Source of the DNA: an uncultured bacterium
GTDB lineage: Bacteria; CSSED10-310; CAZUFC01
Direction of reading: 5' to 3'
Assembly: GCA_964619725.1 (NCBI GenBank)
Contig: CAZUFC010000171.1
Span: 1 to 15,444 of the forward strand
DNA length: 15,444 bases
Numbering within the stretch: position 1 is the stretch's first letter; every line of letters begins with the position of its first letter. This document shows positions 847 to 15,444 of this stretch, piece after piece. The notes below the pieces were generated by a model, which worked only from the letters and a program-made list of their open reading frames with translations, had not been told where the DNA came from and made no database searches. The position numbers and the translations under genes were made by a program.

Positions 847-947
847 AAATAATGGCCCATAAGGGTAAACGGGATATACGGCTTCGTTTGACTCGTTAAA
901 ATTTTAAAAGACAAGAAATTTTAATCCTTCTTTTTTGGGAGAATTTG

Positions 948-3900
948 ATGAGTTTTACAATGAGATATTTCGAATTTAAAAAATTTTTACTTGCGTTGTT
1001 TTTGTCCTTTTCTTTAATTCTTTATTCAGGAATCACCGCAGAAGCCGCCTGGTACGATTCATCCTGGAATTATCGACAGCCAGTAACTATTTCCTCCGGC
1101 ATAACGGATTCGCATCTTTTGAATTTTCCTGTTCTTATAAAAATAGATGATGATTCGAATCCTCTTTTCACGAATGCCCAGTCCGACGGCGACGATATTT
1201 TATTTACGGAGAATGACGAAACCTCGAAACTCGATCATGAAATCGAATTATACGACGATTCTTCGGGAAAATTATTCGTATGGGTAAGAATTCCGACGCT
1301 TTCCAGTTCGTCAGACACAGTAATTTATATGTATTACGGAAATTCTTCCTGTGGAGATCAGCAAAACGTTACGGGAGTATGGGACAGTAACTTCGTCGGC
1401 GTGTGGCATTTGAACGAAACAAGCGGGACCATATATGACAGCACCTCAAATAATAATGACGGAACGGAAACTGTATCACCGGACAGCAACTTGAATGCTG
1501 CAGGCAAAGTTGCCGGTGCAGTTGATTTCGACGGTTCTGACGATTATATCTCCGTTTCTGACGCCGATTCTCTCCGTCCCGGTGACGTAACGCTCTCCGC
1601 CTGGTTTTATCCCGATGAAATGGACAATAACGATAAATGGACCATAGGGAAAATGTGCCGGGATATATGGGGCAATTATGATGCTTGCTCGTATGGCCTG
1701 CATGTCGACGGATATTCTGATAGTGATGATGTTCAAGGGGCAGCGCGTTGTGAGGATAACAGCAATCACACAGACGGCTACTGGGGTTATTTGGGGGCCC
1801 ATCAGAACTGGTATTACCTGACGATGACCTTTCAGGATTCGAACGATATTATTTCCACCTTTACGGACGGCGATCTGGCAGGCACAGAAGACCATGGTCA
1901 AAACTTGAGGTATACGAGTCCAAAAGCTCTATATTTCGCAGGGAACCACAGCGGAACCGGCGGCGGCATAAACAGATACTGGGACGGCAAGCTGGATGAA
2001 ATCAGAATATCGAATTCCGTACGTTCGGATGACTGGATACAAGCTTCTTATAATACGATGAACAGCCCTTCTTCTTATTTGACTATCGGAGACGAAACGT
2101 CAATGTATTCTCCCACGCCTGACGTTTCATCAACACCGACTCAAACTCCCACTGAAACGCCGACATTAAGCCCGACTGAATCGCCGACGCTGACGCCGAC
2201 TTTATCCCCGACCGTAACCCTGTCCCCCACTTTTTCTCCGACGTTGACTCCGACGATAACTTTGTCTCCCACCCACAGTCCGACCTTATCACCGACGCTG
2301 ACGCCTACTGAAACTCTGTCCCCGACCTTCAGCCCCACCAGCACGGTTACCTTAACGCCAACGATAACGCCGACGCCGACTCGTTCGCCCACTGTCCCTC
2401 CCACATTTACGCCGACGCCTACGGCCATGGGCACGAAAACCCCAACGCCCACATTCACCGCTACTTCCACTCCCGCACCCGACATCGTGCTCAGAAGCCA
2501 GGACATCCAGTTCGATCCTTCCTGTCCGGCAGAAAATGAAATGACGACGATTTACGCTACAGTGCACAACTGGGGCGATGAGATTTCGTCTGGATTTACG
2601 GTCCGCTTTTTCTCGAATGATGGTTCCGGACCGGTTCAGTTAGGAGACGACAAAATCGTCGCTCCTCTGGCGCCTGGAGCCTCGGAAACGTTAACCGAAA
2701 ACTGGACGGCGGCATGCGGAACGATCATTTCAACAGAAGCGGACGTTTACGACGAAGTTGCTGAATCCAATGAAACAAACAACGGCGGCGCTCGCAATGC
2801 TCCGATTATATATTGTGCAGACGCAGTAAATTTAACGCTTGAACCGGTTGAAGAGACGATTTCGATTGGCGAAGAGACCGAATTCGTCGTTACGGTCGAA
2901 AACGACAATATGGGTCCGGATACATTCGACCTGACGGTTAGCGGTTCACTGCCGGTTTCCTGGCATGAACTCGATGAAAACCCGCTCGTTCTGACCGCCG
3001 GAGAAACCGGCGAATCGGTTTTGAGTATAACGGTTCCCAATGACTGTGCGGAGATCGGAACATATCCTTTCCAGATAGAAGCGGCATCGCAGCAGATGGG
3101 TGAAAACTACGACGTTGCGGGATTGCTGGAGACGACCGGGGTTGTCGACATAAGCATGCGGCATCCCGGAAACGGCAGCAAAACGGGAAGCCGCGACGTC
3201 ACTTTAAGCTGGCATACGTCGGTGGAAGCCGACTCGACGCTGTATTATCGCGAATCAGGCGCAGGCGATTGGACGGAAGCTATGGTCGGACAGGGCTTGA
3301 TGCAGCATCAGCTCGATCTGGAGAACCTGACCCGAAACACCACATATCAGTGGTACGTGGAAATCGATTCCCTGTGCGGTTCCACGACTTCCAGCACATG
3401 GACCTTTACAATCGGAAACGGAGTCGTTTTCGATCAGAATTCCTACCTGTTTACCGTGGAAAGGGATTACGATCAGCGCAGACAGGTTTCGGTATATAAT
3501 GAAGATGTGGTGAGCCATGAAGTGCAACTTCACATCGAGAATCCCAACGATGATATTATTGTGAACTTCGTAGGACCGGGAAGCGAGGATGAAACGGTTA
3601 TTCTCGCCGGCGGGGAGACGGCTGATATAGAACTGGCGATACACGCTCAGGATGTCGAAGGCGACGGAGAGTCCAAACCGGTGGAGATATGTTTCGACAA
3701 TATAGTATTAACGTTGACTGCGGATGAAGAAGATGACCCGATTACCGACAGCGCTCCGGCGACTATATGCGTCGAATGGCCTGACATTAATTTTACGATA
3801 ACGGAAGAATATTCCGATCCCGTTTCGCTGGTAAAAACATGTCGTGCGACCAACTCAGGAGATCTCCTGACGGATATGACCGTGACGTCTGAAAACGGAT

Positions 3901-5558
3901 TGTCCGGACGCACCTTGTTCGTGCCCAAAGTCGAGCATATGAAGCTGGAAAACGGAGAACACATCGATTTTTATGTCGAACCGCTCTTTCAGCCGGGAGA
4001 TTCCACGCTTTCCGGCGAAGTGTGCGGAGAAGCTGCGGGAGTGCAGGAATGTCTGCCGCTTGTCTTCGATTGCGTGCCTCCCCGAAACATTTATGAAGTC
4101 GTGGTGGCTGAACCGGAATTATGTTACAGCATGGCGGGATGGTTCTGCACGAACAGGCCGAGGATATCGATGCATTTCGACGTATCGCTTGAGATGGAAG
4201 AAGTGGTCACTGCCGCCATATTTACGGAATTCCGGCCGCGGTCCAACGCTCGTCCCCATTTCGTGGATTTATTCATCAACGGCCATTTGATCGGCGAACT
4301 GAACGACATCATTCCCGACGGAGTTTACGGATTCGCTTTCGATCCGGCCTATTTGAATATATCTCCCAACGGGTCGGCTTCCAACACATTTTCCATCCGC
4401 ACACAGCACTTCAACGGCGGTCATTACATCGTATCCACCAATTCTCTGGCCGTTCTGACGATGGAAGCTACCACTCTTTACGTATGCGCCGACGACCAGG
4501 ACCAGGCCGACGACATAGCCGAATCGCTGCCGCATTTCTGCCAGGGATACACTTTCGATCTCGATCCGAGAATCCAGACCGTCGAAATACTGAACTCAGA
4601 TGAAGAACCGACCGATGTGTTCTATCCCGGCGAAATTGCGAAGATAAGAGTCAGGACCGAGAATCCTCACCCCTTCTACAGCTTCAACACGACGTATACT
4701 CTGAAGATCGACACGGACGGAGATACGGGAACAGCCGAATACGACAGTCATCTCGCAGATGAAGACTGGATAACGACACTGGAACACAATGCAGACGTTT
4801 ACCACACATGGGATTGGACCGTCCCCGGCGGCTCCCCTGAGATTCAACTGACCGTGGAGGCGCATGAAACGGCCGATTATGCCAATTGCTACGATTGCCC
4901 CGGATGGAACTGGGATTTCCACGTAGGCGGCGGCATAACCGGATACGTCAGGGAAGCGAACAATCTGCAGCCTATCGAAGGCGCTACGGTTACGGCTTCA
5001 GGAGGCTACTCCGATCCGGACGGCAGCGATGCTGCAGGCTATTACGAAATCAGACGCTTACCAAACGGCGTCTATGACGTAACCGCCGGCGCCCAGGGTT
5101 TCGTCCCTCAAACCCTCCAATATCTGAACGTACAAAGCGACATTCTCGTCAACCAGGACTTTGAGCTGCTTACGCCGACCGTTACGCCTACGCCGACTGT
5201 GACGAATACGCCGACCATAACCAATACGCCGACTATCACTCAAACGCCAACGCTCTCGCCGACGCAAACTCTCTCTCCCACACCAACGATCTCCTCCACA
5301 CCGACAATACCGCCGACTCAAACCGCTTCCCCTACAACATCCCCTACGATTTCTCCCTCGCCGACATACACATCAACTCCTTCGCCCACATTTACCTTTT
5401 CACCAACCTTAACGCCGACTTCTCCCACGCCCACGACAACAACCACACCGACCGTGCCGCCCATTCCCGCCTTAACCAGCGCCGGAATTTCGCTCCTGAT
5501 CATCCTGGTCGGATGCTGTTTCGCCTTTGCTCGCTTTAAGACTCTCAAGGATATTTAA
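948..5558 (+). CDS. Large modular cell-surface protein (~1536 aa): signal peptide, DUF2341, LamG/concanavalin-like, PT linker, CARDB, Ig-like/FN3-like domains, unassigned Cys/His domain, carboxypeptidase-regulatory-like domain, PT linker, IPTL-CTERM-like anchor
   Basis: Long ORF. GGGAGA at 937-942 precedes ATG 948 (TTG 945 and ATG 960 are alternatives). Signal peptide [27 protein letters not shown]2341-type motifs [16 protein letters not shown]...LDHEIE, WVRIP...IYMYYGN. LamG-type motifs [38 protein letters not shown]-type PDIV...IYATVHNWG...VAESNETNN (from 2481). GGITGYV...PIEGATV...[15 protein letters not shown] (from ~4929). C-terminal IPAL + hydrophobic helix + basic tail. Confidence 0.93.
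2109..2480 (+). repeat. Low-complexity Pro/Thr/Ser linker (xxPT repeats) within the CDS
   Basis: [35 protein letters not shown]...TPAP, about 124 codons with degenerate codon usage. Confidence 0.9.
5172..5462 (+). repeat. Low-complexity Pro/Thr/Ser stalk preceding the C-terminal anchor
   Basis: [31 protein letters not shown]...TTTTPTVPP, about 97 codons. Confidence 0.9.
5463..5558 (+). other. IPTL-CTERM-like protein sorting signal
   Basis: [31 protein letters not shown]: IPxLxxxG motif, transmembrane helix, basic residues, then stop. It lacks the Trp of the canonical IPTLxxWG. Confidence 0.75.
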
Positions 5559-6390: not shown

Positions 6391-9300
6391 TTACGGCAAA
6401 CAATCTATCCCCCTTTTTACAATTCTCATTATTTCCGGCGCCTCCTGTTCCTCTAATGAAACGCCCGTAATGCCGGGGACGAGCCCCAGCGGCGTTTTAT
6501 CGCCGGTCAGGCTTTGCAGGTGGACCTTTTTTAACGGGAAGGTCAGTTTCATCAACATGTTTTCTCCGTTCCGGATATTATGTCCTTCCTGGCTGGGCAT
6601 GGCGCCGCGGCTGTAGTGATAGGCGGTTCCGTTGCAGTCGTAATCGTTTTCCCGTGAGAAATCGGTTGTGTTTCGGTGCAGGTAATCTTTTTCTCTTACG
6701 GGTTGTCCCAGGTATTGCTCATCGTAGGCGATTAATGCATCAACGGCCAGGATTCTTCCGGGCATTTCCGCGTTCAGTATCAGTTCTACCGTAATGAAGG
6801 CCTGGTTGCTCAATTCGCTGTATTCAGTAATCTTCAGTTCCAATTCGTTCAAGTTCAGAACATATCCTTCGGCGCGGGATTTACCGTTGATGTCCGGGAC
6901 GAAGGAGAGACGACCGTTCTGGTTGAGCCAAATGGAATAGTCGGCTGAATTGATAACGTCGTCGTCGTTGAAATCGCTCAGATCGTCCCAGTTGGGATCG
7001 GTCGGGATGCTGCCGTTGGCTACGAGCCATCTAACGAAATCTCCTGATGCGTTGACGAATCCGTCTCCATTCGCATCGCCTCCTCTAATGGCCAGCATAT
7101 CGTCGGCTTCCGGGCCCAAAGGCTCGAAGCCGTATGCCTGTATATAGTACGGGCTGTTTACATCGGAAAGGTTTACCGTCGTTTTGCCCACATAGGTGAA
7201 GTGCAGTCTTTCGCTGGTTATTACGCTGAGGTGATTTTTATGATCCACGAAGAGGTAATAATCGCCGCCCTGGTATCCAGTCATGGTCAAGTCGCCTGTA
7301 TTGCCGTTCGCGTCGAGAGGAACCTCTTCTATCCGGGCGTAGACGTGGACGGCTGTGTCTGGAGAGCTGCCTTGTCTGAGTTCTATATCTATCGATGCGG
7401 GCGCCTGTGAGCCTGAAGAATATATCCCGTCTATGAAGATCGTTAGGTTCAGGATGGGTTCCCCGGAGAATTCATCCGCTCCGATGTCGAATTCGCCTTC
7501 CAGCGGTCTGTCGTGTCCATCGTAGTCCCTGTCCGTCAGGTCATATTCCATCAGGAAGGCTCCGGCGTTGACGCAGGGTGACGTTTCATGAATGTGGTAA
7601 TCTTTGTTTCCCACGAATTGCGGATCATCCGGGATGTTGCCTTCCCCGGCATCACCATCGCTGACTGCGCAGTGGACGGAATCGACGCCGTACAAGTCGT
7701 CATTGTGGTTCCATACTATGCAGTTGGTAATTTCCAGGTTTCCGGAATTTTTGTATATTCCGTAACTGATGTTGTCCGCTATGGTGTCGTGATATATCCG
7801 AACCTTTTCACCCGAAGAGTTGCAATAGATGCCATAACCCTGGTTATTGGCAATAAAGCAGTCGACTACTTTCAAAGGATCGTTTGAGCCGATGTAAATG
7901 CCGTCGCCTACGGTGAAGTGGTCGGGGCTGCCCCAGGCATCATTGTCGCTGATTAATACACGATGAACAGTAACTTCAGCCGCTCCTCCCGCGATATAAA
8001 CGCCTCCGCCGTAGGAGTATCCGAGTTGCTGACTGTTTCCTGAGGCGTATGATTCTCCTTTGTTGTCCGTAATGAGGACGGATTCGTGAATAACGGCGCT
8101 TGCCCCGGAATCGACAGCCACGGCTCCGCCGTATGTGTTGCCGTAGGCGCGCCCGGAGCTTGCCTGTTCCCGGGCTGAAGCGTAAGCCGTATTTTCCATG
8201 AAGGCGCTGCGTCTGATTTCCGTTTGTGAGTTTGAAGCGCAGAACAACCCTCCGCCGTATGAATAAGCGTAAGCGCGATAGGAGCTTGCGGTATTTTCGC
8301 AATAGGAATAAGCGATATTATTGCGGAAGAAGTTGGATTCGAGAGTCAAATCGCTGTTTTCGCCTGCATATACAGCGCCGCCGTAGGAATATACGTAAAG
8401 GTAGTTGCCGTAAGAAGCGATTATTTCAACATGGGCTTCATTCCCAATGAATTTATTGTCATACAGCAGGGAATTGCCTTCCAGATAAAGAGCGCCGCCT
8501 TTTGCTGCAGCATCCCGTCCGATTGCGGTTGCGGAATTTGCTGAGAAGGCGTTTGAAAAAATGACCGGCGATGCATCGTCAGCGCAGTAAATGGCTCCGC
8601 CCATTTTAACAGCGGATGTTCCTGAGCCGGAAGCGCCATTGCCGGTAAACTCATTGTTGCTGATAACCAGTGTATCATCGGTATCGAAGCATGCGACAGC
8701 CCCGCCGGCCATCGGCGCCGTGTTCGATTCAAAGGAACAGGAATCGACAGACGTCAGACCGCACGATTGGATATGCAAGGCGCCGCCATAACCTTCGGAG
8801 GTTAGGACGACCTGGTTATCCAGGAATCTACAGCCGGTGATACGCACATCATAGCAATGAGCGAAAAACGCGCCGCCTCCCCGCGCCAGGTTGCCGTTTT
8901 CTCCGGCCGTGTTGGATTCAATGACGCAGTCTTTCATCATTATATGGCGGGACGAGTAACATGAGATGCCTCCCCCGTAATACTGCCTTCCGTTCATTAT
9001 TGCGAAACCGTCTATCGTCGTGTTGGAAGCGTTGTTTATAATGACCGCGGCATCCAGACGCCTGCCGTTGATGATCGTGGTATGAATCGAAGGGTCTCTG
9101 AGCCCTCCGCCTGAAGGATACCCTCCCAGAAGAGTGATATCGCCTGCCAAAAGAAGGTTTTCTTTATATTCTCCTTCTGCAGTATGAATGAAGCCGCCTG
9201 AAACCGCTGCATCCAAAGCTGCAGTGATGCTCGCTTTAGCTGCAACCCAGCTCAATCCGTCGTTTCCGTCGTCACCGTTAATCTGATCGACATAATATTC

Positions 9301-12300
9301 GGATGCAGGCGTCGACGTTGGAGAACCTGTCGGTGTAGGAGTATAAGGCGTTACGCTTGGAGGAGGAGTCGGATTCGTGAAAGTCGTTTCGTCCGCGCCA
9401 ATATCATTGCGCCCCAGGCTGAATGGCCTGTAATCTCCGTCGAAATCATCCATAGGAGCATAGTTGTTGGTTCCCCTATCAATACAACAGGATGAATGCC
9501 TCAGATGATAATCGCCGTCACCTTTAAAAGATGGATTGCATGGAGGCGTCAAATTTCCTTCACCGGACGCTCCGCTTTGAATATTGCTGTAGTCCGCGTT
9601 TAATCCGTAAAGGTCGTAATCGTTGTTCCACAGAAGACAGTTCCTTATAAAAGCGTTACCGCTTGAATTTCCGTAAATCCCATATCCGCTGTTGCCGGCG
9701 ATGGTGTTGTTTACGATAAGGGGTAAGGCGCTGTTCAGATAGACGGCATTTCCCGGATGGTCGACTATGAAGCAGTTATAAACCGTCGCCGGCGTTGCGT
9801 TGATATAGACGGCATAACCGTCTGAACCATTGTTCGGCGATGCCGTCATCTCGTTGGCCCGCATCATGAGTCCATTAAGGCGCACTTCGGCATCAGCGCC
9901 GGTGATGTATAACCCGCAGCCCCGGACGTAAGAAGCGCGGCTGCTCCCTTCGCTGTAAGCCTCACAGATGTTTTCTTCGATTATGGTTCCTCTTTCCATA
10001 ACAAGTTGTGCGCCGTCATTGCAATAAACAGCCGACCCGTATGAATAGGAATAACCTCGCCCGCTGCTTGCGACGTCCTTACCGAAAGAATACGCTATAT
10101 TATCTCTGAATAGATCGCTATGAACATGGACTGCAGAACCTTGATCGCAATATAACGCCGCGCCGAAGCCGTAAGCATAGGCCCTCTGACTGGAAGACCC
10201 GTTTTCAGCATGAACGTGGACTCTATTTTCCCGGAACTCATTAAAGGCAAAGGACACCAGGCTGCCGTCAGCACAATAGACGGCTCCGCCGTAAGAATAT
10301 TGATAAATGTTTGCTCCGTATCCGCTATTGAAATAGTTATAACTTTCATTGGCCAAAATGAGGTTTGAGATCAATTCGGCTTCCCCTGCGCAGTAAAGAG
10401 CTCCGCCCATCATGGTCGTATTGACGGAATTGGAGGTTACGACGCGATTCTGGATGAATTCATTATTGTCCAGGATCACAGATGCCGTTGAATCGACGAA
10501 AAGCGCTCCGCCTTTTGCATTGGGACTTTCTGCCATGTTGCCTTCGAATAGATTATCCGTCATCGTTACAGGACTGTCTGAATCAGCTATGTAAATGCCC
10601 CCGCCGATATTATCAGAGTAATTAAAACTGATTATGTTTCCCTCCAGAAGGATTTTACTGCCTCCCCCGCAGTAAATCCCCCCGCCCAGGACCTCTTCGC
10701 CTTCAACGAAGTTATCGATGATCGTGTTGTCGATCAAACGAATGTTGTTTCCATGGATATAAAGGCCGCCGCCCAGCGCGAGGTTGCGGGAAGATGGAAC
10801 GTCCACGCAGTAATTGTTTTCTATCCGGTTGTTGCTGATAAGGATATCCTGAGCCCGTCCGACATAGAATCCGCCGCCGTAGTCGCCTCGACCGTTGACG
10901 ATCATAAATCCGTCTATGGCGACGTTGATGACTCGGGGAATTCTCACAACAGTATCCATGTGAGCTCCGTCAATAACTGTCAGATGCATATCCGGGTCGC
11001 GCGTTCCTCCGCCCGCGGGATAACCTCCGAGAAGAGTCAAATAACTCACGCAGAAAATATTTTCCGTGTAATGTCCTTCGGCGACATGCACATTGCCGCC
11101 GCCCATATTCTCAGCCAGTATGATCGCTGATGTGATTGACGCTTTAGCTGAACCCCAGGCGAGTCCGTCATTTTCATCATTGCCGTTGAGAGAATCGACG
11201 TAGAAGTCTGCGGAAGGAGTCGGACTGGGACCGGGAGTATGAGTTCCGAAGGGCGTAACATATGGAGTCGGTGAAGGATTGGTTCTGGGAACTTCATCCG
11301 CGCCTATGTCCGGGACGCCGAATGCATAAGGGCGTTGTTCTCCATCCGCGTCATGGTCCAAATGCCCCTCGAAACTTCCCCTGTCTATACAGCAGGAGTA
11401 TCTCGACAGGTGATAATCGCCGTTCCCGATAAAGACTGGATTGCAGGGCGGGTCCAGGTTGCCTTCGCCCGGGTCTGCACCCTGGATGTCGCTGTAAGTC
11501 GCCGTTACGTTCACGAGGTCGTCCGGATGTCCCCAGAGTATGCAATTTCTGATGACGGGAATACTGCTTCCGGCCCCATAGATGCCGTTGTTAAGATTAT
11601 ATGCTATTGTGTTGTTGACGATGAGCGAGCTGGAATTCTGCAGATAGATGCCTGTTCCCGGATTCTCCACTATAAAAGAATTATAGAGCTGAACGGCTGA
11701 AGAATTGATGTATATCCCGTGTCCGATAGAGGCGTTATTGGGTGAAGCGTATAAAAAATTGTTGCGGACGGTCAAGCCGTCCAGAATGACGTCAGCCGTC
11801 GTTCCAGTTACATAAACCGCCCCGCCGTAGGTATAAGCGGCCCTGCTGCTTCCGTAAGCTTCTGCATGGCATTGATTGTCCTCCAGGAGGCTTCCGATGC
11901 CGATGACGACCTCCGATGCATCAGCGCAATAAAGGACCCCGCCGTATGCGTAGGCATAACCGCGACCGCTGCTTGCCGTATCTTTACCGTAAGCATAGGA
12001 CATATTTTCAGTCATCGAATCGTTAGACATCACCAGTTTGCCTCCGGCATCGCAGTATGCGACAGCCCCGTATCCATAGGCATATCCCCGGCGACTCGAA
12101 CTGGCGTTTTCCGAGTGGCTGTAAGCCTGATTTTCATTATAAACATTTAGCGACGATTCGAGAATTCCGTCTGTAGCGCAAAACAGCGCTCCACCGTAAG
12201 AATACTGGTAGGCATTGTCTCCATAACTGGAATTAAAATAATTATAACTCTGGTTTCTAATGAACAGGTTCCCGGAAACGCCGGCTATACCCGCGCAATA

Positions 12301-14988
12301 TATCCCGCCGCCTCTGACCGTCGTATTGACGTTGTTGGAATTTGAGGCCCGGTTGTCCCTGAATTCATTGTCCGTAACCGTTACCTCAACGCCCCTGTCG
12401 ACGAATAATCCGCCGCCCCGGCCCTCAGCCCCCGTCGCTTCATTCCACTCGAACACGTTTCCGAAAATAGAAACGGGAAAATCCGCATTCGTAATGGCAC
12501 ACCCTCCGCCGGCGTATTCGCACGTATTGTAAGATAGAGTATTGCCGCTTATGACGATACCGTGACCGTTAGGGCAGTAAATGCCTCCGCCCAATGCATC
12601 GCTCCCCGTAACCGTATTGTAGGAAATCGTGTTGGCGCTGATCCGGATATCGGTTCCCAGGGCGTAAATGCCGCCTCCTCTTGCCAGGTTGTTCGTTGCA
12701 GGATTGTGGACAGCTTTGTTTTGCGTGATCGTATTCCCGTTAATAACAACCCGGCGGGCATGACCGATGTAGATGCCGCCTCCATATTCCGCCAGCCCTC
12801 CCGTTAACACGAAACCATCAACAACGACGTTTGAAACCGCTCCTATTCTTATGGGAGCATCCTCATTATCGGCATCTATTACCGTAATATTGACTGATGG
12901 GTCTCTGTCCCCGCCGCCTGCCGGATAGCCTCCGTAAAGCCGCAAGTTATCAAAAGCGTTGATTTTTTCATGATAGGTCCAGGCTGCCGCATGAATATTG
13001 CCGCCTCCGTTTGCTTCAGCAAGTTCCAAAGCAGCGCCGACAGTTTCTTTGGCGCTCGACCAGCTCAATCCGTCATTGTAATCCTGCCCCAGCTCTCCGT
13101 CGACATAGTAGTCAGCAGCCGGCGTCGGGATAGGCGTTGCCGTGCCGAAAGGCGTCGAGTAAGGCGTCGGCGAGGGATTGATGTGTGCGCATTCGTCCGC
13201 TCCGATGTCGGGCATGCCGAAGGCGTATGGGCGATATTCACCGTCGAAATCATGATCTGGAATGTCAAGCGGATACCCGCGGTCTATACAGCATGAACCC
13301 GGAAGAATATGATAGTCGCCGTCTCCAACGAATAAAGGCGGGCACGGCGGGTCCAGGTTCCCTTCCCCCGGATCGCCCCCTTGAATGTCGGAATACTCAG
13401 CCGCAACTCCGTGCAAATCGTCGTTATTCCCCCATAGAATGCTGTTTCTGACCAGCGGATTGCCGCCGTCCGCATAAATGCCGTATCCGTCATTGTATAC
13501 GATTGTGCAGTGGATGATCTGAGCATCGCTTGAATACAGATAAACCGCTTCATTTTCATTGTCATGGATGAAAGAGTTGACTAATTGCAACGGCGTTTCG
13601 CGAACGTAAATGCCTTCGCCTAGAGAAGTATTGTTCGGAACGGCGTTCAAATGATTCGCTTTCAGCACGATACCGTCTATCGTCACATCCGCGTTCGCTC
13701 CCCATGTGCATATTCCTCCGCCGTATACATAAGCATAATCGTATGATCCTGATCCGGCACCCTGGGCAATCGCTGAATTCTCTTGCACTGTAACTCCCAG
13801 GCCGATTATTGCCGCAGAACCATCAGCCAGGTATAAAGCGCCTCCGTATGAATAACCAAAACCTCTGCCGCTGGAAGCCGTATCCTGTCCGTACGCATAA
13901 GCGATATTTTCCTCCAGGAGATCGCCGGCAGACTCCATATACCCGCCGGCAGCGCAATACAAAGCTCCACCGTAACTGTAAGCGTAAGCTCTTCGGCTTG
14001 ACGTCGTATTTATGATGTTCGCATAAGCCTGGTTCACATAATATTCGTTCCCGGAAGAAACCGTTATGCCCCCGGCGCCGCAAAAAACGGCTCCGCCGTA
14101 CGAGCATTTCTGCAAGTTGTCGTTATACCCGCCGTTAAACATTGACCTGGCTTCATTGCCGCTGAACAAACATCCGGTCATCGTCAATTCTCCCAGGCAG
14201 TAAATGCCCCCGCCTCCGGAATGAGTATCATGCGACCCTGTTGCAATTGAATAATTGTTCAATATTTCGTTATCGTTCATCACTACGACGCTGTTAGAGT
14301 CTATCCACAATCCGCCGCCGAAGGCCGATGAAGCGGTGACGGCGTTTTCCTGAATAACGTTGCCTGTCAAAGTCAGGTCGCTTTCAGATACGAAGATGCC
14401 GCCGCCATGATCCGCCCCGGCGCCTGTGTTGTTCTGAATGACGTTGTATTCCAGCGTAACCGACGAGAGAACGCACGAGATGCCGGCGCCGGCGACTGCA
14501 GCTTCATTTTGTTCTATGATGCAATTATCTATTATACATGAGGAGCAGGAAGCCATTGAAATTCCGCCGCCTTGATCGGCGGAACCGTTTCTTATCGTAA
14601 AGCCGTCGACCCGGAAGTTTGCAGCGTTTGATACGTTCAGTCCTGCTTCTGCGGAACTTCCGTCTACAATGCTGATATAATTGACAGGATCACGAGGGCC
14701 GCCGCCCGCGGGGTAACCGCCCAGCATCGTCACGTTATCGGCGCCGATGTTTACGTTTTCCGTGTAAATCCCTTCGGAGACATTGATCACGGACGGGGCA
14801 GAAACCATATCAACTGCCGCTTGAACTGTGGCTTTGGCCGTACCCCATGACAAACCGTCGTTGCCGTCGTCCCCGTTAAACTGATCGACGTAATAATCGG
14901 TTTGAGCGTAAGCGACATTCGCTGCCCCGGAGGCCAGTAAAACCGGAATTGCGAGCATTAACAAAAGCGATAAATATTTGTTCTTCAT
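6391..14988 (-). CDS. Giant secreted protein (~2865 aa from the internal ATG): four tandem right-handed parallel beta-helix (pectin-lyase-like/Pmp-like) modules, each ending in a choice-of-anchor-Q-like motif, plus C-terminal dockerin-like and cohesin-like domains
   Basis: AAGGAG (15000-14995) lies 6 nt before ATG 14988. A 28-aa Sec signal MKNKYLSLLLMLAIPVLLASGAANVAYA/Q follows. Each module starts (Y/F)YVD..G.D.NDGL.W..AK, contains many GGG(I/L)Y / GGA(L/V)Y and Asn-ladder repeats, and ends DYH(I/L)...S.C(I/V)..G...D.DG..RP...DIGADE. The C-terminus has GDANGDGFVN and DFNDDDVINSAD Ca-loop-like repeats. The ORF track starts this frame at 15348 because there is no stop upstream. Confidence 0.9.
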   Translation of the reverse strand: MKNKYLSLLLMLAIPVLLASGAANVAYAQTDYYVDQFNGDDGNDGLSWGTAKATVQAAVDMVSAPSVINVSEGIYTENVNIGADNVTMLGGYPAGGGPRDPVNYISIVDGSSAEAGLNVSNAANFRVDGFTIRNGSADQGGGISMASCSSCIIDNCIIEQNEAAVAGAGISCVLSSVTLEYNVIQNNTGAGADHGGGIFVSESDLTLTGNVIQENAVTASSAFGGGLWIDSNSVVVMNDNEILNNYSIATGSHDTHSGGGGIYCLGELTMTGCLFSGNEARSMFNGGYNDNLQKCSYGGAVFCGAGGITVSSGNEYYVNQAYANIINTTSSRRAYAYSYGGALYCAAGGYMESAGDLLEENIAYAYGQDTASSGRGFGYSYGGALYLADGSAAIIGLGVTVQENSAIAQGAGSGSYDYAYVYGGGICTWGANADVTIDGIVLKANHLNAVPNNTSLGEGIYVRETPLQLVNSFIHDNENEAVYLYSSDAQIIHCTIVYNDGYGIYADGGNPLVRNSILWGNNDDLHGVAAEYSDIQGGDPGEGNLDPPCPPLFVGDGDYHILPGSCCIDRGYPLDIPDHDFDGEYRPYAFGMPDIGADECAHINPSPTPYSTPFGTATPIPTPAADYYVDGELGQDYNDGLSWSSAKETVGAALELAEANGGGNIHAAAWTYHEKINAFDNLRLYGGYPAGGGDRDPSVNITVIDADNEDAPIRIGAVSNVVVDGFVLTGGLAEYGGGIYIGHARRVVINGNTITQNKAVHNPATNNLARGGGIYALGTDIRISANTISYNTVTGSDALGGGIYCPNGHGIVISGNTLSYNTCEYAGGGCAITNADFPVSIFGNVFEWNEATGAEGRGGGLFVDRGVEVTVTDNEFRDNRASNSNNVNTTVRGGGIYCAGIAGVSGNLFIRNQSYNYFNSSYGDNAYQYSYGGALFCATDGILESSLNVYNENQAYSHSENASSSRRGYAYGYGAVAYCDAGGKLVMSNDSMTENMSYAYGKDTASSGRGYAYAYGGVLYCADASEVVIGIGSLLEDNQCHAEAYGSSRAAYTYGGAVYVTGTTADVILDGLTVRNNFLYASPNNASIGHGIYINSSAVQLYNSFIVENPGTGIYLQNSSSLIVNNTIAYNLNNGIYGAGSSIPVIRNCILWGHPDDLVNVTATYSDIQGADPGEGNLDPPCNPVFIGNGDYHLSRYSCCIDRGSFEGHLDHDADGEQRPYAFGVPDIGADEVPRTNPSPTPYVTPFGTHTPGPSPTPSADFYVDSLNGNDENDGLAWGSAKASITSAIILAENMGGGNVHVAEGHYTENIFCVSYLTLLGGYPAGGGTRDPDMHLTVIDGAHMDTVVRIPRVINVAIDGFMIVNGRGDYGGGFYVGRAQDILISNNRIENNYCVDVPSSRNLALGGGLYIHGNNIRLIDNTIIDNFVEGEEVLGGGIYCGGGSKILLEGNIISFNYSDNIGGGIYIADSDSPVTMTDNLFEGNMAESPNAKGGALFVDSTASVILDNNEFIQNRVVTSNSVNTTMMGGALYCAGEAELISNLILANESYNYFNSGYGANIYQYSYGGAVYCADGSLVSFAFNEFRENRVHVHAENGSSSQRAYAYGFGAALYCDQGSAVHVHSDLFRDNIAYSFGKDVASSGRGYSYSYGSAVYCNDGAQLVMERGTIIEENICEAYSEGSSRASYVRGCGLYITGADAEVRLNGLMMRANEMTASPNNGSDGYAVYINATPATVYNCFIVDHPGNAVYLNSALPLIVNNTIAGNSGYGIYGNSSGNAFIRNCLLWNNDYDLYGLNADYSNIQSGASGEGNLTPPCNPSFKGDGDYHLRHSSCCIDRGTNNYAPMDDFDGDYRPFSLGRNDIGADETTFTNPTPPPSVTPYTPTPTGSPTSTPASEYYVDQINGDDGNDGLSWVAAKASITAALDAAVSGGFIHTAEGEYKENLLLAGDITLLGGYPSGGGLRDPSIHTTIINGRRLDAAVIINNASNTTIDGFAIMNGRQYYGGGISCYSSRHIMMKDCVIESNTAGENGNLARGGGAFFAHCYDVRITGCRFLDNQVVLTSEGYGGALHIQSCGLTSVDSCSFESNTAPMAGGAVACFDTDDTLVISNNEFTGNGASGSGTSAVKMGGAIYCADDASPVIFSNAFSANSATAIGRDAAAKGGALYLEGNSLLYDNKFIGNEAHVEIIASYGNYLYVYSYGGAVYAGENSDLTLESNFFRNNIAYSYCENTASSYRAYAYSYGGGLFCASNSQTEIRRSAFMENTAYASAREQASSGRAYGNTYGGAVAVDSGASAVIHESVLITDNKGESYASGNSQQLGYSYGGGVYIAGGAAEVTVHRVLISDNDAWGSPDHFTVGDGIYIGSNDPLKVVDCFIANNQGYGIYCNSSGEKVRIYHDTIADNISYGIYKNSGNLEITNCIVWNHNDDLYGVDSVHCAVSDGDAGEGNIPDDPQFVGNKDYHIHETSPCVNAGAFLMEYDLTDRDYDGHDRPLEGEFDIGADEFSGEPILNLTIFIDGIYSSGSQAPASIDIELRQGSSPDTAVHVYARIEEVPLDANGNTGDLTMTGYQGGDYYLFVDHKNHLSVITSERLHFTYVGKTTVNLSDVNSPYYIQAYGFEPLGPEADDMLAIRGGDANGDGFVNASGDFVRWLVANGSIPTDPNWDDLSDFNDDDVINSADYSIWLNQNGRLSFVPDINGKSRAEGYVLNLNELELKITEYSELSNQAFITVELILNAEMPGRILAVDALIAYDEQYLGQPVREKDYLHRNTTDFSRENDYDCNGTAYHYSRGAMPSQEGHNIRNGENMLMKLTFPLKKVHLQSLTGDKTPLGLVPGITGVSLEEQEAPEIMRIVKRGIDCLP
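7471..14904 (-). repeat. Four diverged intragenic module repeats: ~14904-13192, 13113-11293, 11208-9388, 9300-7471
   Basis: Boundaries were taken from YYVD/FYVD to DIGADE. Lengths are about 571, 607, 607 and 610 codons, separated by ~26-29-aa NP(S/T)P...TP linkers. Confidence 0.9.
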
Positions 14989-15444
14989 CAGCAGCTCCTT
15001 GAGGCGACATTGCTTCTTAACGAGCATAATACAGAAAAACAGGATCAGCGCCGTCAATCCGATTCCCGACAGAGCAGGAACGGGAGCAGGCGTCGGAGTG
15101 GTCGTAGGAGAAGCCGTGGGACCGGTTGTCGGCGTCCCGGTGGGTTCGCTCGTGGGCGAATGGGTAGGACTGTCTGTCGGCGTTGAAGTTGGCGAGATTG
15201 TGGGTGAAAGAGTATGCGTGGGCGAGACGGTCGGCGTACCTGTGGGTTCGCTCGTGGGCGAACAGGTAGGACTGTCGGTCGGCGTAGAAGTGGGAGATTC
15301 GGTAGGCGACAGAGTATGAGTGGGAGTCAGGGTGACGGTGGAACTCAATGTTGCCGTGGGAGAGAGAGTCGGCGTCAGGGTGGCGGTTCCGGTGGGGGAT
15401 AAGGTCGGCGTCAGGGTCGGCGTGTCGGTGGGAGGAATCGTGGG
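14989..15444 (-). CDS. 3' end of an upstream surface-protein gene (partial, begins beyond the window): PT stalk plus IPTL-CTERM-like anchor, no stop codon, in frame with the 14988 gene
   Basis: The frame is open from the window edge ([38 protein letters not shown]...) through TPTPAP VPALSGIGLTALILFFCIMLVKK QCRLKELL into MKNKY. The layout is the same as the C-terminus of the 948..5558 protein. The TTG at 15348 is an internal Leu codon. Confidence 0.85.
14995..15000 (-). promoter_or_regulatory. Shine-Dalgarno sequence internal to the fused reading frame
   Basis: The minus strand reads CTC AAGGAG CTGCTG ATG AAG AAC AAA. Confidence 0.8.
15121..15324 (-). repeat. 102-bp (34-codon) tandem duplication within the PT stalk
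   Basis: [34 protein letters not shown] / PTHTLSPTISPTSTPTDSPTHSPTSEPTGTPTTG. The 21-mer GTGGGTTCGCTCGTGGGCGAA occurs at 15140 and 15242, an offset of 102. Confidence 0.88.

Follow-up and report, generated by a model that had tools for sequence, protein, structure and literature searches.

A sorting tag that runs in frame into a second signal peptide at a predicted surface-protein fusion in an uncultured microbial-mat bacterium

The window analysed here is the entire 15,444-base contig C171 (CAZUFC010000171.1) of an uncultured microbial-mat bacterium, whose source draft (G000) comprises 9.17 Mb in 344 contigs at 47% G+C, with an estimated completeness of 90.9% and an estimated contamination of 6.5%. 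Its minus strand carries one reading frame (6391..15444) of 3017 codons without a stop, open at its 5' side past the contig end, in which an exosortase-type sorting tag leads straight into the signal peptide of a second exported protein. The frame encodes, in order, a proline- and threonine-rich (PT) stalk, PVPAL, SGIGLTALILFFCIMLV, KKQCRLKELL, MKNKY, LSLLLMLAIPVLLA, SGAANVAYA and QTDYYVD, and no stop codon stands between the upstream sorting tag and the downstream signal peptide. An earlier sequence-only reading had described this uninterrupted frame with an AAGGAG ahead of an internal ATG, a description that is correct to the base, and its coordinates, its CAA codon (15012-15010) and its T5 run (inside CTG TTT TTC) are exact on re-reading of the sequence.

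The anatomy of the junction, all on the minus strand, combines a complete tag with a complete signal peptide. The stalk (15085..15444), which is the 3' part of an upstream surface-protein gene cut by the contig end, contributes 120 open codons of P/T/S repeats. It is followed by the signature motif VPAL (15070..15081, with V at 15081-15079), which starts the match to a profile of this genome's own C-terminal tails and is identical in a paralogue on contig C203, and by a 17-residue transmembrane helix, SGIGLTALILFFCIMLV (15019..15069; Kyte-Doolittle window >2.9), predicted to run from outside to inside, whose substitutions relative to C203 are hydrophobic swaps. The predicted cytoplasmic loop, KKQCRLKELLMKNKY (14974..15018; 15 residues, 6 K/R and 1 E), has two roles, supplying the tag with its basic cluster and the signal peptide with its n-region. 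A Shine-Dalgarno (SD) sequence, AAGGAG (14995..15000), lies 6 nt 5' of the internal ATG (14988-14986), from which the Sec-type signal peptide MKNKYLSLLLMLAIPVLLASGAANVAYA (14905..14988) begins. By inspection, this segment has the MKNKY n-region, 14 hydrophobic residues (h-region 14932-14973) and AYA/Q (AYA at 14905-14913) with A at -3 and -1, thus combining the positive n-region, hydrophobic h-region and small -3/-1 residues of a signal peptidase I substrate. AYA ends at 14905, and QTDYYVD starts at 14904.

What follows is a mature giant beta-helix protein of four repeat units and ~2837 aa (6391..14904, minus strand, up to the stop codon; Pfam Beta_helix 2.1e-63, NosD 2.6e-28), in which right-handed beta-helix repeats make up ~2830 residues after QTDYYVD and which has no sorting tag of its own. 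Each of the four units opens with [DE][YF]YVD..G.D.NDGL.W, resembling the mature N-terminus, and short P/T-rich linkers lie between them. A dockerin-like DxNGDG.. stretch was also seen by eye in the C-terminal 400 residues, with no Pfam match there at E<=0.01.

The junction is genuine and not an artefact. The alternative, that a miscalled stop or a one-base error in the T5 run made a false fusion, draws on the draft state of the assembly (344 contigs, 6.5% estimated contamination) and on the fragility of the run itself: with four T the upstream frame would end at a TGA overlapping the ATG, and with six it would end 8 codons later. Against this stands the paralogue on C203, which is 81.6% identical to C171 in amino acids and 78.4% in nucleotides and keeps the same junction in frame on a different sequence. 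There, 23 of the 85 codons around the junction differ (11 synonymously, 12 not), with a single difference in the 33 nt 5' of the ATG, and the motif, basic residues, SD, ATG and AYA/Q are all kept; because C203 is in frame without any T5 run, slippage in that run is excluded as the explanation. This observation is further strengthened by a 332-nt Logan contig (public run X1, depth 8.8), which spans 14889-15220, and with it the whole junction, with 0 differences and 0 gaps. Run X1 may be the genome's own sample, though separately assembled, and rare variants are lost from such contigs; 14963-15079 is not covered by runs X2 and X3. This support comes from assembled contigs. An exchange between paralogues could not have created the fusion either, because the assembly node common to both (14879-14918, depth 20.5) lies downstream of the junction. 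An artefact is thus very improbable, and the part of the sequence-only reading that favoured a sequencing or assembly error is rejected.

The same reading had also proposed a lost stop codon between two genes, and here the fusion itself fits the comparison with related proteins. The beta-helix protein has 8 paralogues in the genome, of which only C171 and C203 carry a stalk and tag in front. The other six (C19, C106, C215, C93, C42 and C81; 43-48% identity) stand alone behind stop-rich non-coding DNA, each with its own SD, ATG and signal peptide leading to Q[ST]DYYVD, and the internal signal peptide of the window is homologous in position to their N-terminal signals. An AAGGAG or GGAGGA lies 6-9 nt 5' of the ATG in all eight. 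Because these six more distant paralogues stand alone, the arrangement in the window is a gene fusion, specifically an in-frame fusion of two exported-protein genes.

Neighbouring genes of the kind from which such a fusion could be made are found elsewhere in the genome. A co-oriented open reading frame (ORF) with a signal-peptide-like start lies within 150 nt 3' of 20 of 196 tail-bearing ORFs, seven times across a spacer of <=30 nt, and in three tandem pairs (contigs C15, C172 (1114-1368, L070) and C36 of G000) the two genes are in frame and separated by a single stop, with 3, 12 and 18 nt from stop to ATG. One substitution in any of these three pairs would reproduce the architecture of the window. 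The fusion would most likely have arisen by stop loss or frame change between two close co-oriented genes. In the -1 frame of the window (14986-15042, minus strand), the linker ends in TGATG, where TGA and ATG overlap as in a typical coupled stop-start, and a one-base gain 5' of it could equally have made the fusion. That the CAA codon specifically replaced a TAA is one possibility among several, since TGT, AAG and GAG in the linker each likewise lie a single step away from a stop.

The tag itself belongs to a large sorting-signal system of this organism. In all six frames, [IVLT]P[ATSG][LMIVF] with a hydrophobic stretch behind it occurs at 375 sites, whose motif-to-stop distances peak sharply at 24-36 residues. 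A tail profile was built from 140 de-duplicated C-terminal tails of this genome; its seeds were chosen by regular expression, so that motif invariance is partly built in, while the terminal position and the reversed control are unaffected. Among 76,915 six-frame ORFs of >=50 aa, the profile recognised 203 sites at an independent E-value (i-E) <0.01, with 190 of them <=12 aa from a stop, and reversed ORFs gave no match at that threshold (best i-E 0.79). The consensus is [IV]P[AST][LMF]-xxxG, a helix and a basic cluster. The internal tag of the window scores 28.9 bits (i-E 2.9e-6), next to 36.3 bits for the tail (5412-5555) of an ordinary substrate on the plus strand of the window, a 1537-aa surface protein (945..5558; Laminin_G_3, CARDB, CarboxypepD_reg, DUF2341) that ends in IPAL, helix, basic residues and stop.

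A single exosortase gene was found to serve this system. It lies on contig C134, encodes 190 aa, scores 65.7 bits against TIGR04178 (cut-off 23) and has an orthologue in 14 of 14 phylum genomes at 38-58% identity. Its subfamily scores stay below the cut-offs (XrtH, TIGR04177, 76.6 vs 86; ArtB 78.2 vs 150), and the enzyme is XrtH-like, not a member of XrtH. XrtH is paired with an IPTL-type motif. The IPTL-CTERM label given to the tag by the sequence-only reading is only approximately right, as no match to the NCBIfam IPTL-CTERM model TIGR04174 was obtained for any of 18 tails (E up to 1 or 10; HMMER filters may drop such short matches). The exosortase gene (L030 4956-5528, minus strand; region C134:8000-18000) overlaps a 214-aa membrane-protein gene without a family match. 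Near it lie genes for a histidine kinase, a sigma-54 response regulator and a HEAT-repeat protein; the kinase/sigma-54 pair is reminiscent of the PrsK/PrsR regulators of PEP-CTERM systems. Adjoining the gene is an 876-aa ORF without a Pfam match, the end of which matches the sorting-signal part of NCBIfam NF033207 ('midcut-by-XrtH protein').

Haft's preprint (bioRxiv 10.1101/2023.06.07.544157) recognises a sorting signal by a motif, helix and basic cluster at the C-terminus, by many unrelated carriers and by a cognate enzyme. The window tag has the signature motif (VPAL...G), the helix and the basic cluster (KK..R.K), which it shares with ordinary tags such as PEP-CTERM, IPTL-CTERM and their kin; the 203 sites of the genome include LamG/CARDB, beta-helix, lamin-tail domain (LTD)/phosphodiesterase and SUMF1 proteins, and one exosortase-family gene above cut-off is present. 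It differs in its location, with 2873 residues after the match.

Taken together, these features suggest a defined sequence of events. The upstream PT-stalked surface protein would be exported first, until the tag helix stops transfer (outside to inside). Basic loops stay inside under the positive-inside rule, and the 15-residue loop would therefore be retained in the cytoplasm, after which the signal peptide would re-start export (inside to outside). Signal peptidase I would cut after AYA, and the single XrtH-like exosortase would cut at or near VPAL, remove the helix and pass the stalk protein to its anchor, leaving two mature proteins, while the hairpin of ~59 residues would be discarded. 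Independent synthesis of the beta-helix protein from the internal SD and ATG may occur as well. The loss of a stop would be cheap, as the end products are those of two separate genes. The fusion may persist since the hairpin makes read-through harmless, with coupled 1:1 synthesis as a possible benefit. The sequence and its reality, the sorting system, the origin by fusion and the recurrence of the layout are established here, and we infer the topology, both cleavages and any benefit. The sequence-only reading had offered a cleavable hairpin as the less simple of its two options; it is now the best-supported mechanism, with a plausible hairpin and both processing sites intact, while the cleavage itself leans on the Haloferax volcanii protein HVO_0405. 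We assign a probability of roughly 0.6 to the whole reading, namely an in-frame fusion whose hairpin is cut by exosortase and signal peptidase I and is tolerated or possibly useful.

The credibility of this mechanism was increased by the occurrence of similar hairpins in other proteins. Seven of the 203 profile sites lie >30 residues from a stop; one (C80) is merely a long tail, and in the other six (C171, C203, C64, C155, C226 and C10) the tag is followed by a basic cluster and a second hydrophobic segment. A further case on C126, of the same family as C155, was found by regular expression only. Beyond the beta-helix pair, these sites and their relatives place the combination of a tag with a second export signal in three other protein families.

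The first of these families is represented by C64 (16142-18934; L069 1143-3935), in which a signal peptide and lamin-tail domain are followed by a VPAA tag, KSTRR, a second signal (AHS/V), a phosphodiesterase domain and BNR repeats, and in which the tag helix contains the sole ATG near the second signal, an ATG without an SD. An orthologue with 51% identity in a genome of another family (G007 C15, L073) keeps the hairpin as LPAT..., SRPKR and ...AYA/EF. Orthologues in G003 (C35, L075) and G008 (C13, L074), from a third family of the phylum, have a hydrophilic linker and no helices instead, which suggests that a protein already continuous either gained the hairpin or lost it.

The second family is represented by a protein of G006. 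There, a complete 1460-aa ORF (C9, L052 4197-8579) on a 178-kb contig of a 20-contig genome encodes a signal peptide, PKD/Ig repeats, an IPIPTL tag, RVCRNRIRIRNH, a second signal (GFA/Q), a beta-helix and a normal C-terminal tag; the ORF thus comprises two complete surface-protein units, each with its own tag, one internal and one C-terminal. Its orthologue in G012 (C104, L054), from another genus and 60% identical, keeps the junction in frame with a net length difference of 2 codons and with strongly diverged helix and loop sequences. In G003, G005 and G008, the downstream half has stand-alone homologues that begin with a Met and signal peptide of their own. This Met has been lost in the fused forms, where the nearest (sole internal) ATG has no SD, and because of this the downstream half would be made only via read-through.

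The third family comprises CarboxypepD_reg/SUMF1 proteins and is represented in the source genome by C155:14892-16142 (L027 1893-3143), C126:13083-15284 (L026 2084-4285), C226:1528-1917 (L028) and C10, in other genomes by G012 C315 (L043 1393-2955), G013 (L049) and G002 (L047), and by 9 database clusters. Its members begin with a signal peptide and ~20 conserved residues (..G.AYK.G..DHSGI..), followed by the tag, the basic cluster, a second helix and CarboxypepD_reg, whose match opens at profile position 29-30 after the second helix; SUMF1/FGE follows in most members. The motif Pro is invariant in 11 sequences, as are the Cys and Ala that end the second helix (Cys-x-x-[YT]-A), the Cys being a possible lipobox-like site. 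The arrangement looks like a domain interrupted by the hairpin, although the 34 residues ahead of the hairpin produced no CarboxypepD_reg match in Pfam. The C226 copy ends after 130 residues within the CarboxypepD_reg part and is possibly truncated or broken. NCBI names these members only as 'SUMF1/EgtB/PvdO family'.

The tail profile of the source genome also picks out the internal sites of G006, G012 and G013. In this phylum, read-through hairpins are thus both conserved and required, which lends credibility to the proposed mechanism in the window. The caution of the sequence-only reading that the junction might be strain-specific, with no comparable junctions elsewhere, was refuted by C64, C155, C226, C10 and C126, by four other genomes of the phylum and by conservation across genera.

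Two of these families also lend some support to a different outcome, in which the fused chain stays uncut at one or both sites and a permanent membrane hairpin holds both extracytoplasmic parts as one giant protein. The topology permits this; the hairpin of the split family sits within an apparently single domain, the fold of which would be split by cutting, and the C64-family orthologues without a hairpin are continuous two-domain proteins. In the window, however, the two cleavage motifs are conserved and undamaged (VPAL...G, and AYA/Q with A at -3 and -1), the signal has homologues at the N-termini of six stand-alone paralogues, where it must be cleaved or act N-terminally, and a central archaeosortase site is cleaved in HVO_0405. 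An uncut chain at this locus is unlikely.

A broader proposal, which we advance tentatively and with less confidence than the processing of this one fusion, is that the hairpin may be a reusable, selected device of the phylum by which a single chain gives rise to a pair of surface proteins, the exosortase receiving one while the other is released or lipidated. Such a device would arise by fusion of neighbouring genes (the window; G006/G012), within an existing interdomain linker (C64/G007, compared with the orthologues of G003/G008 that lack a hairpin) and maybe inside a domain loop (the split CarboxypepD_reg/SUMF1 family with its invariant Cys), and the junction of the window would be a young member, still bifunctional through read-through and a start of its own.

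The age of the junction was examined by Nei-Gojobori estimates of synonymous divergence (dS) and of the ratio of nonsynonymous to synonymous divergence (dN/dS) between C171 and C203. The mature protein gave a dS of 1.28 and a dN/dS of 0.085, the PT stalk 0.107 and 0.30, and the 59-codon junction 0.267 and 0.33, with a dN/dS of 0.16 for the anchor (few sites). The pattern suggests that the 5' module was homogenised or copied between C171 and C203, as by gene conversion, well after the bodies had diverged. The explanation that the junction had been kept in frame since an old duplication was dropped, given a junction dS of 0.27 against 1.28 for the body. Over the first 317 nt, C171 (14905-15444) and C203 (1-560) are 96.5% identical, and the two contigs break at the same homologous base.

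These contig ends bear on whether the upstream part is a functional gene at all. The stalk and anchor might be the decaying remnant of a broken gene, with only the beta-helix protein expressed, from its own SD and ATG. The contig does end in the stalk with no upstream body that can be linked to it, the SD and ATG are retained, and the database gene caller started the C203 protein at an internal Met (2879 aa). On the other hand, 120-154 stalk codons are open in the two copies, including an in-frame length difference of 34 codons; motif, helix and basic cluster are intact in both, and dN/dS is 0.16 for the anchor and 0.30 for the stalk (few sites). The truncation is moreover an effect of assembly, since many contigs break in PT stalks: at least 7 (C1, C54, C70, C74, C104, C156, C192 and others) end within long PT-stalk frames, and 13 contig ends carry open frames rich in P/T/S, including several long PT stalks, none assignable to the window. 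A search of the assembly found no contig overlapping the end of the window. The assembly breaks systematically in PT repeats, and many surface-protein genes are thereby split between contigs. We regard decay of the upstream part as improbable, and a tag-bearing surface protein fused to the beta-helix protein as the better account of these data.

Several observations nonetheless weigh against the proposed fusion and its processing. The dS of stalk and junction (0.11-0.27) is about five- to ten-fold below that of the remainder (1.28), so the fusion may be recent, and because stalk and junction are far younger than the body, C171 and C203 are not independent witnesses of long retention. With ~10 linker codons, the lack of a new stop is only a weak sign of selection. 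The window keeps its SD and ATG, unlike the conserved cases, so that read-through is not needed for the downstream protein. The body and start of the upstream gene lie outside the assembly, the gene being known here from its stalk and tag, and translation through the junction and both cleavages are predictions from the sequence. The exosortase falls short of the XrtH cut-off, and against NF033207 the window scores 18.3 bits as DNA (profile positions 28-94) and 14.9 bits as peptide, with a cut-off of 45. Finally, no orthologue of the junction was found outside the genome, either among the 14 available genomes, which are related to it no more closely than at the level of the phylum, or in wider searches. 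Taken alone, the C171/C203 locus is compatible with a selected or a merely harmless fusion.

In these wider searches, metagenome contigs yielded 4 weak loci, at 28-36% identity, none of them related to the junction. A HMMER search of 1.84 billion representatives gave 18,393 matches; among the best 150 of these, five whose match starts within the signal-peptide region at an internal position (P0057, P0145, P0111, P0094 and P0126) have no tag-signal hairpin. A word-indexed search with residues 105-330 of P0001 returned 49 matches, namely the paralogues in this genome and distant beta-helix proteins with no other fused junction evident, and one with the C64 protein returned only itself.

The significance of the locus lies in how sorting signals are recognised. 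Tags of the sortase and exosortase type are defined and annotated as C-terminal, so that internal copies are missed or taken for errors, and gene callers split or truncate genes that have them. Together with the conserved cases, the locus shows that at least one uncultured phylum stably maintains an architecture in which a second export signal comes after a mid-chain tag, with a bearing on surface-proteome prediction, on exosortase substrate recognition and on the question of whether bacteria make secreted 'polyproteins'. To our knowledge, the chemistry of bacterial exosortases is poorly known. The window junction, with its read-through frame and internal start, would be a handy natural construct for following exosortase cleavage by size shift, as HVO_0405 is for archaeosortase.

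Among known systems is the family NF033207, whose name states a mid-protein cut by exosortase H and whose members are known here by name and alignments. It is weakly matched by 11 of 16 ordinary tails of the genome (positions ~24-67) and by the split CarboxypepD_reg/SUMF1 family (positions 25-155, 28.4 bits in G012), again below the cut-off of 45, so that neither these nor the window belong to it. A literature search found no publication on the 'midcut-by-XrtH' family, and none of relevance on an exosortase with IPTL-CTERM, on exosortase polyproteins or on PEP-CTERM with an internal signal peptide. In Myxococcus xanthus, MXAN_5598 has an internal MYXO-CTERM, and such tags are stated to work mid-protein (PMC11980579); that case differs in involving another tag and a CPBP-type myxosortase and in being a prediction only, and the accessible part of the same report describes no second-signal hairpin. 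A processed counterpart is HVO_0405 of Haloferax volcanii, a gene-fusion protein and archaeosortase A substrate with a central tripartite signal, the cleavage of which needs ArtA, PssA and PssD (PMC7157517). As expected of two joined genes of the HVO_0405 type, the window has stand-alone paralogues in its genome and retains an SD and ATG at the joint. HVO_0405 differs in being an archaeal Tat substrate that relies on ArtA and PGF-CTERM, whereas the window belongs to a bacterium with a small XrtH-like exosortase, and the tag of the window leads into a complete Sec signal peptide with its own SD and ATG. The layout is thus known but rarely documented, and it is found here in a new enzyme subfamily and phylum.

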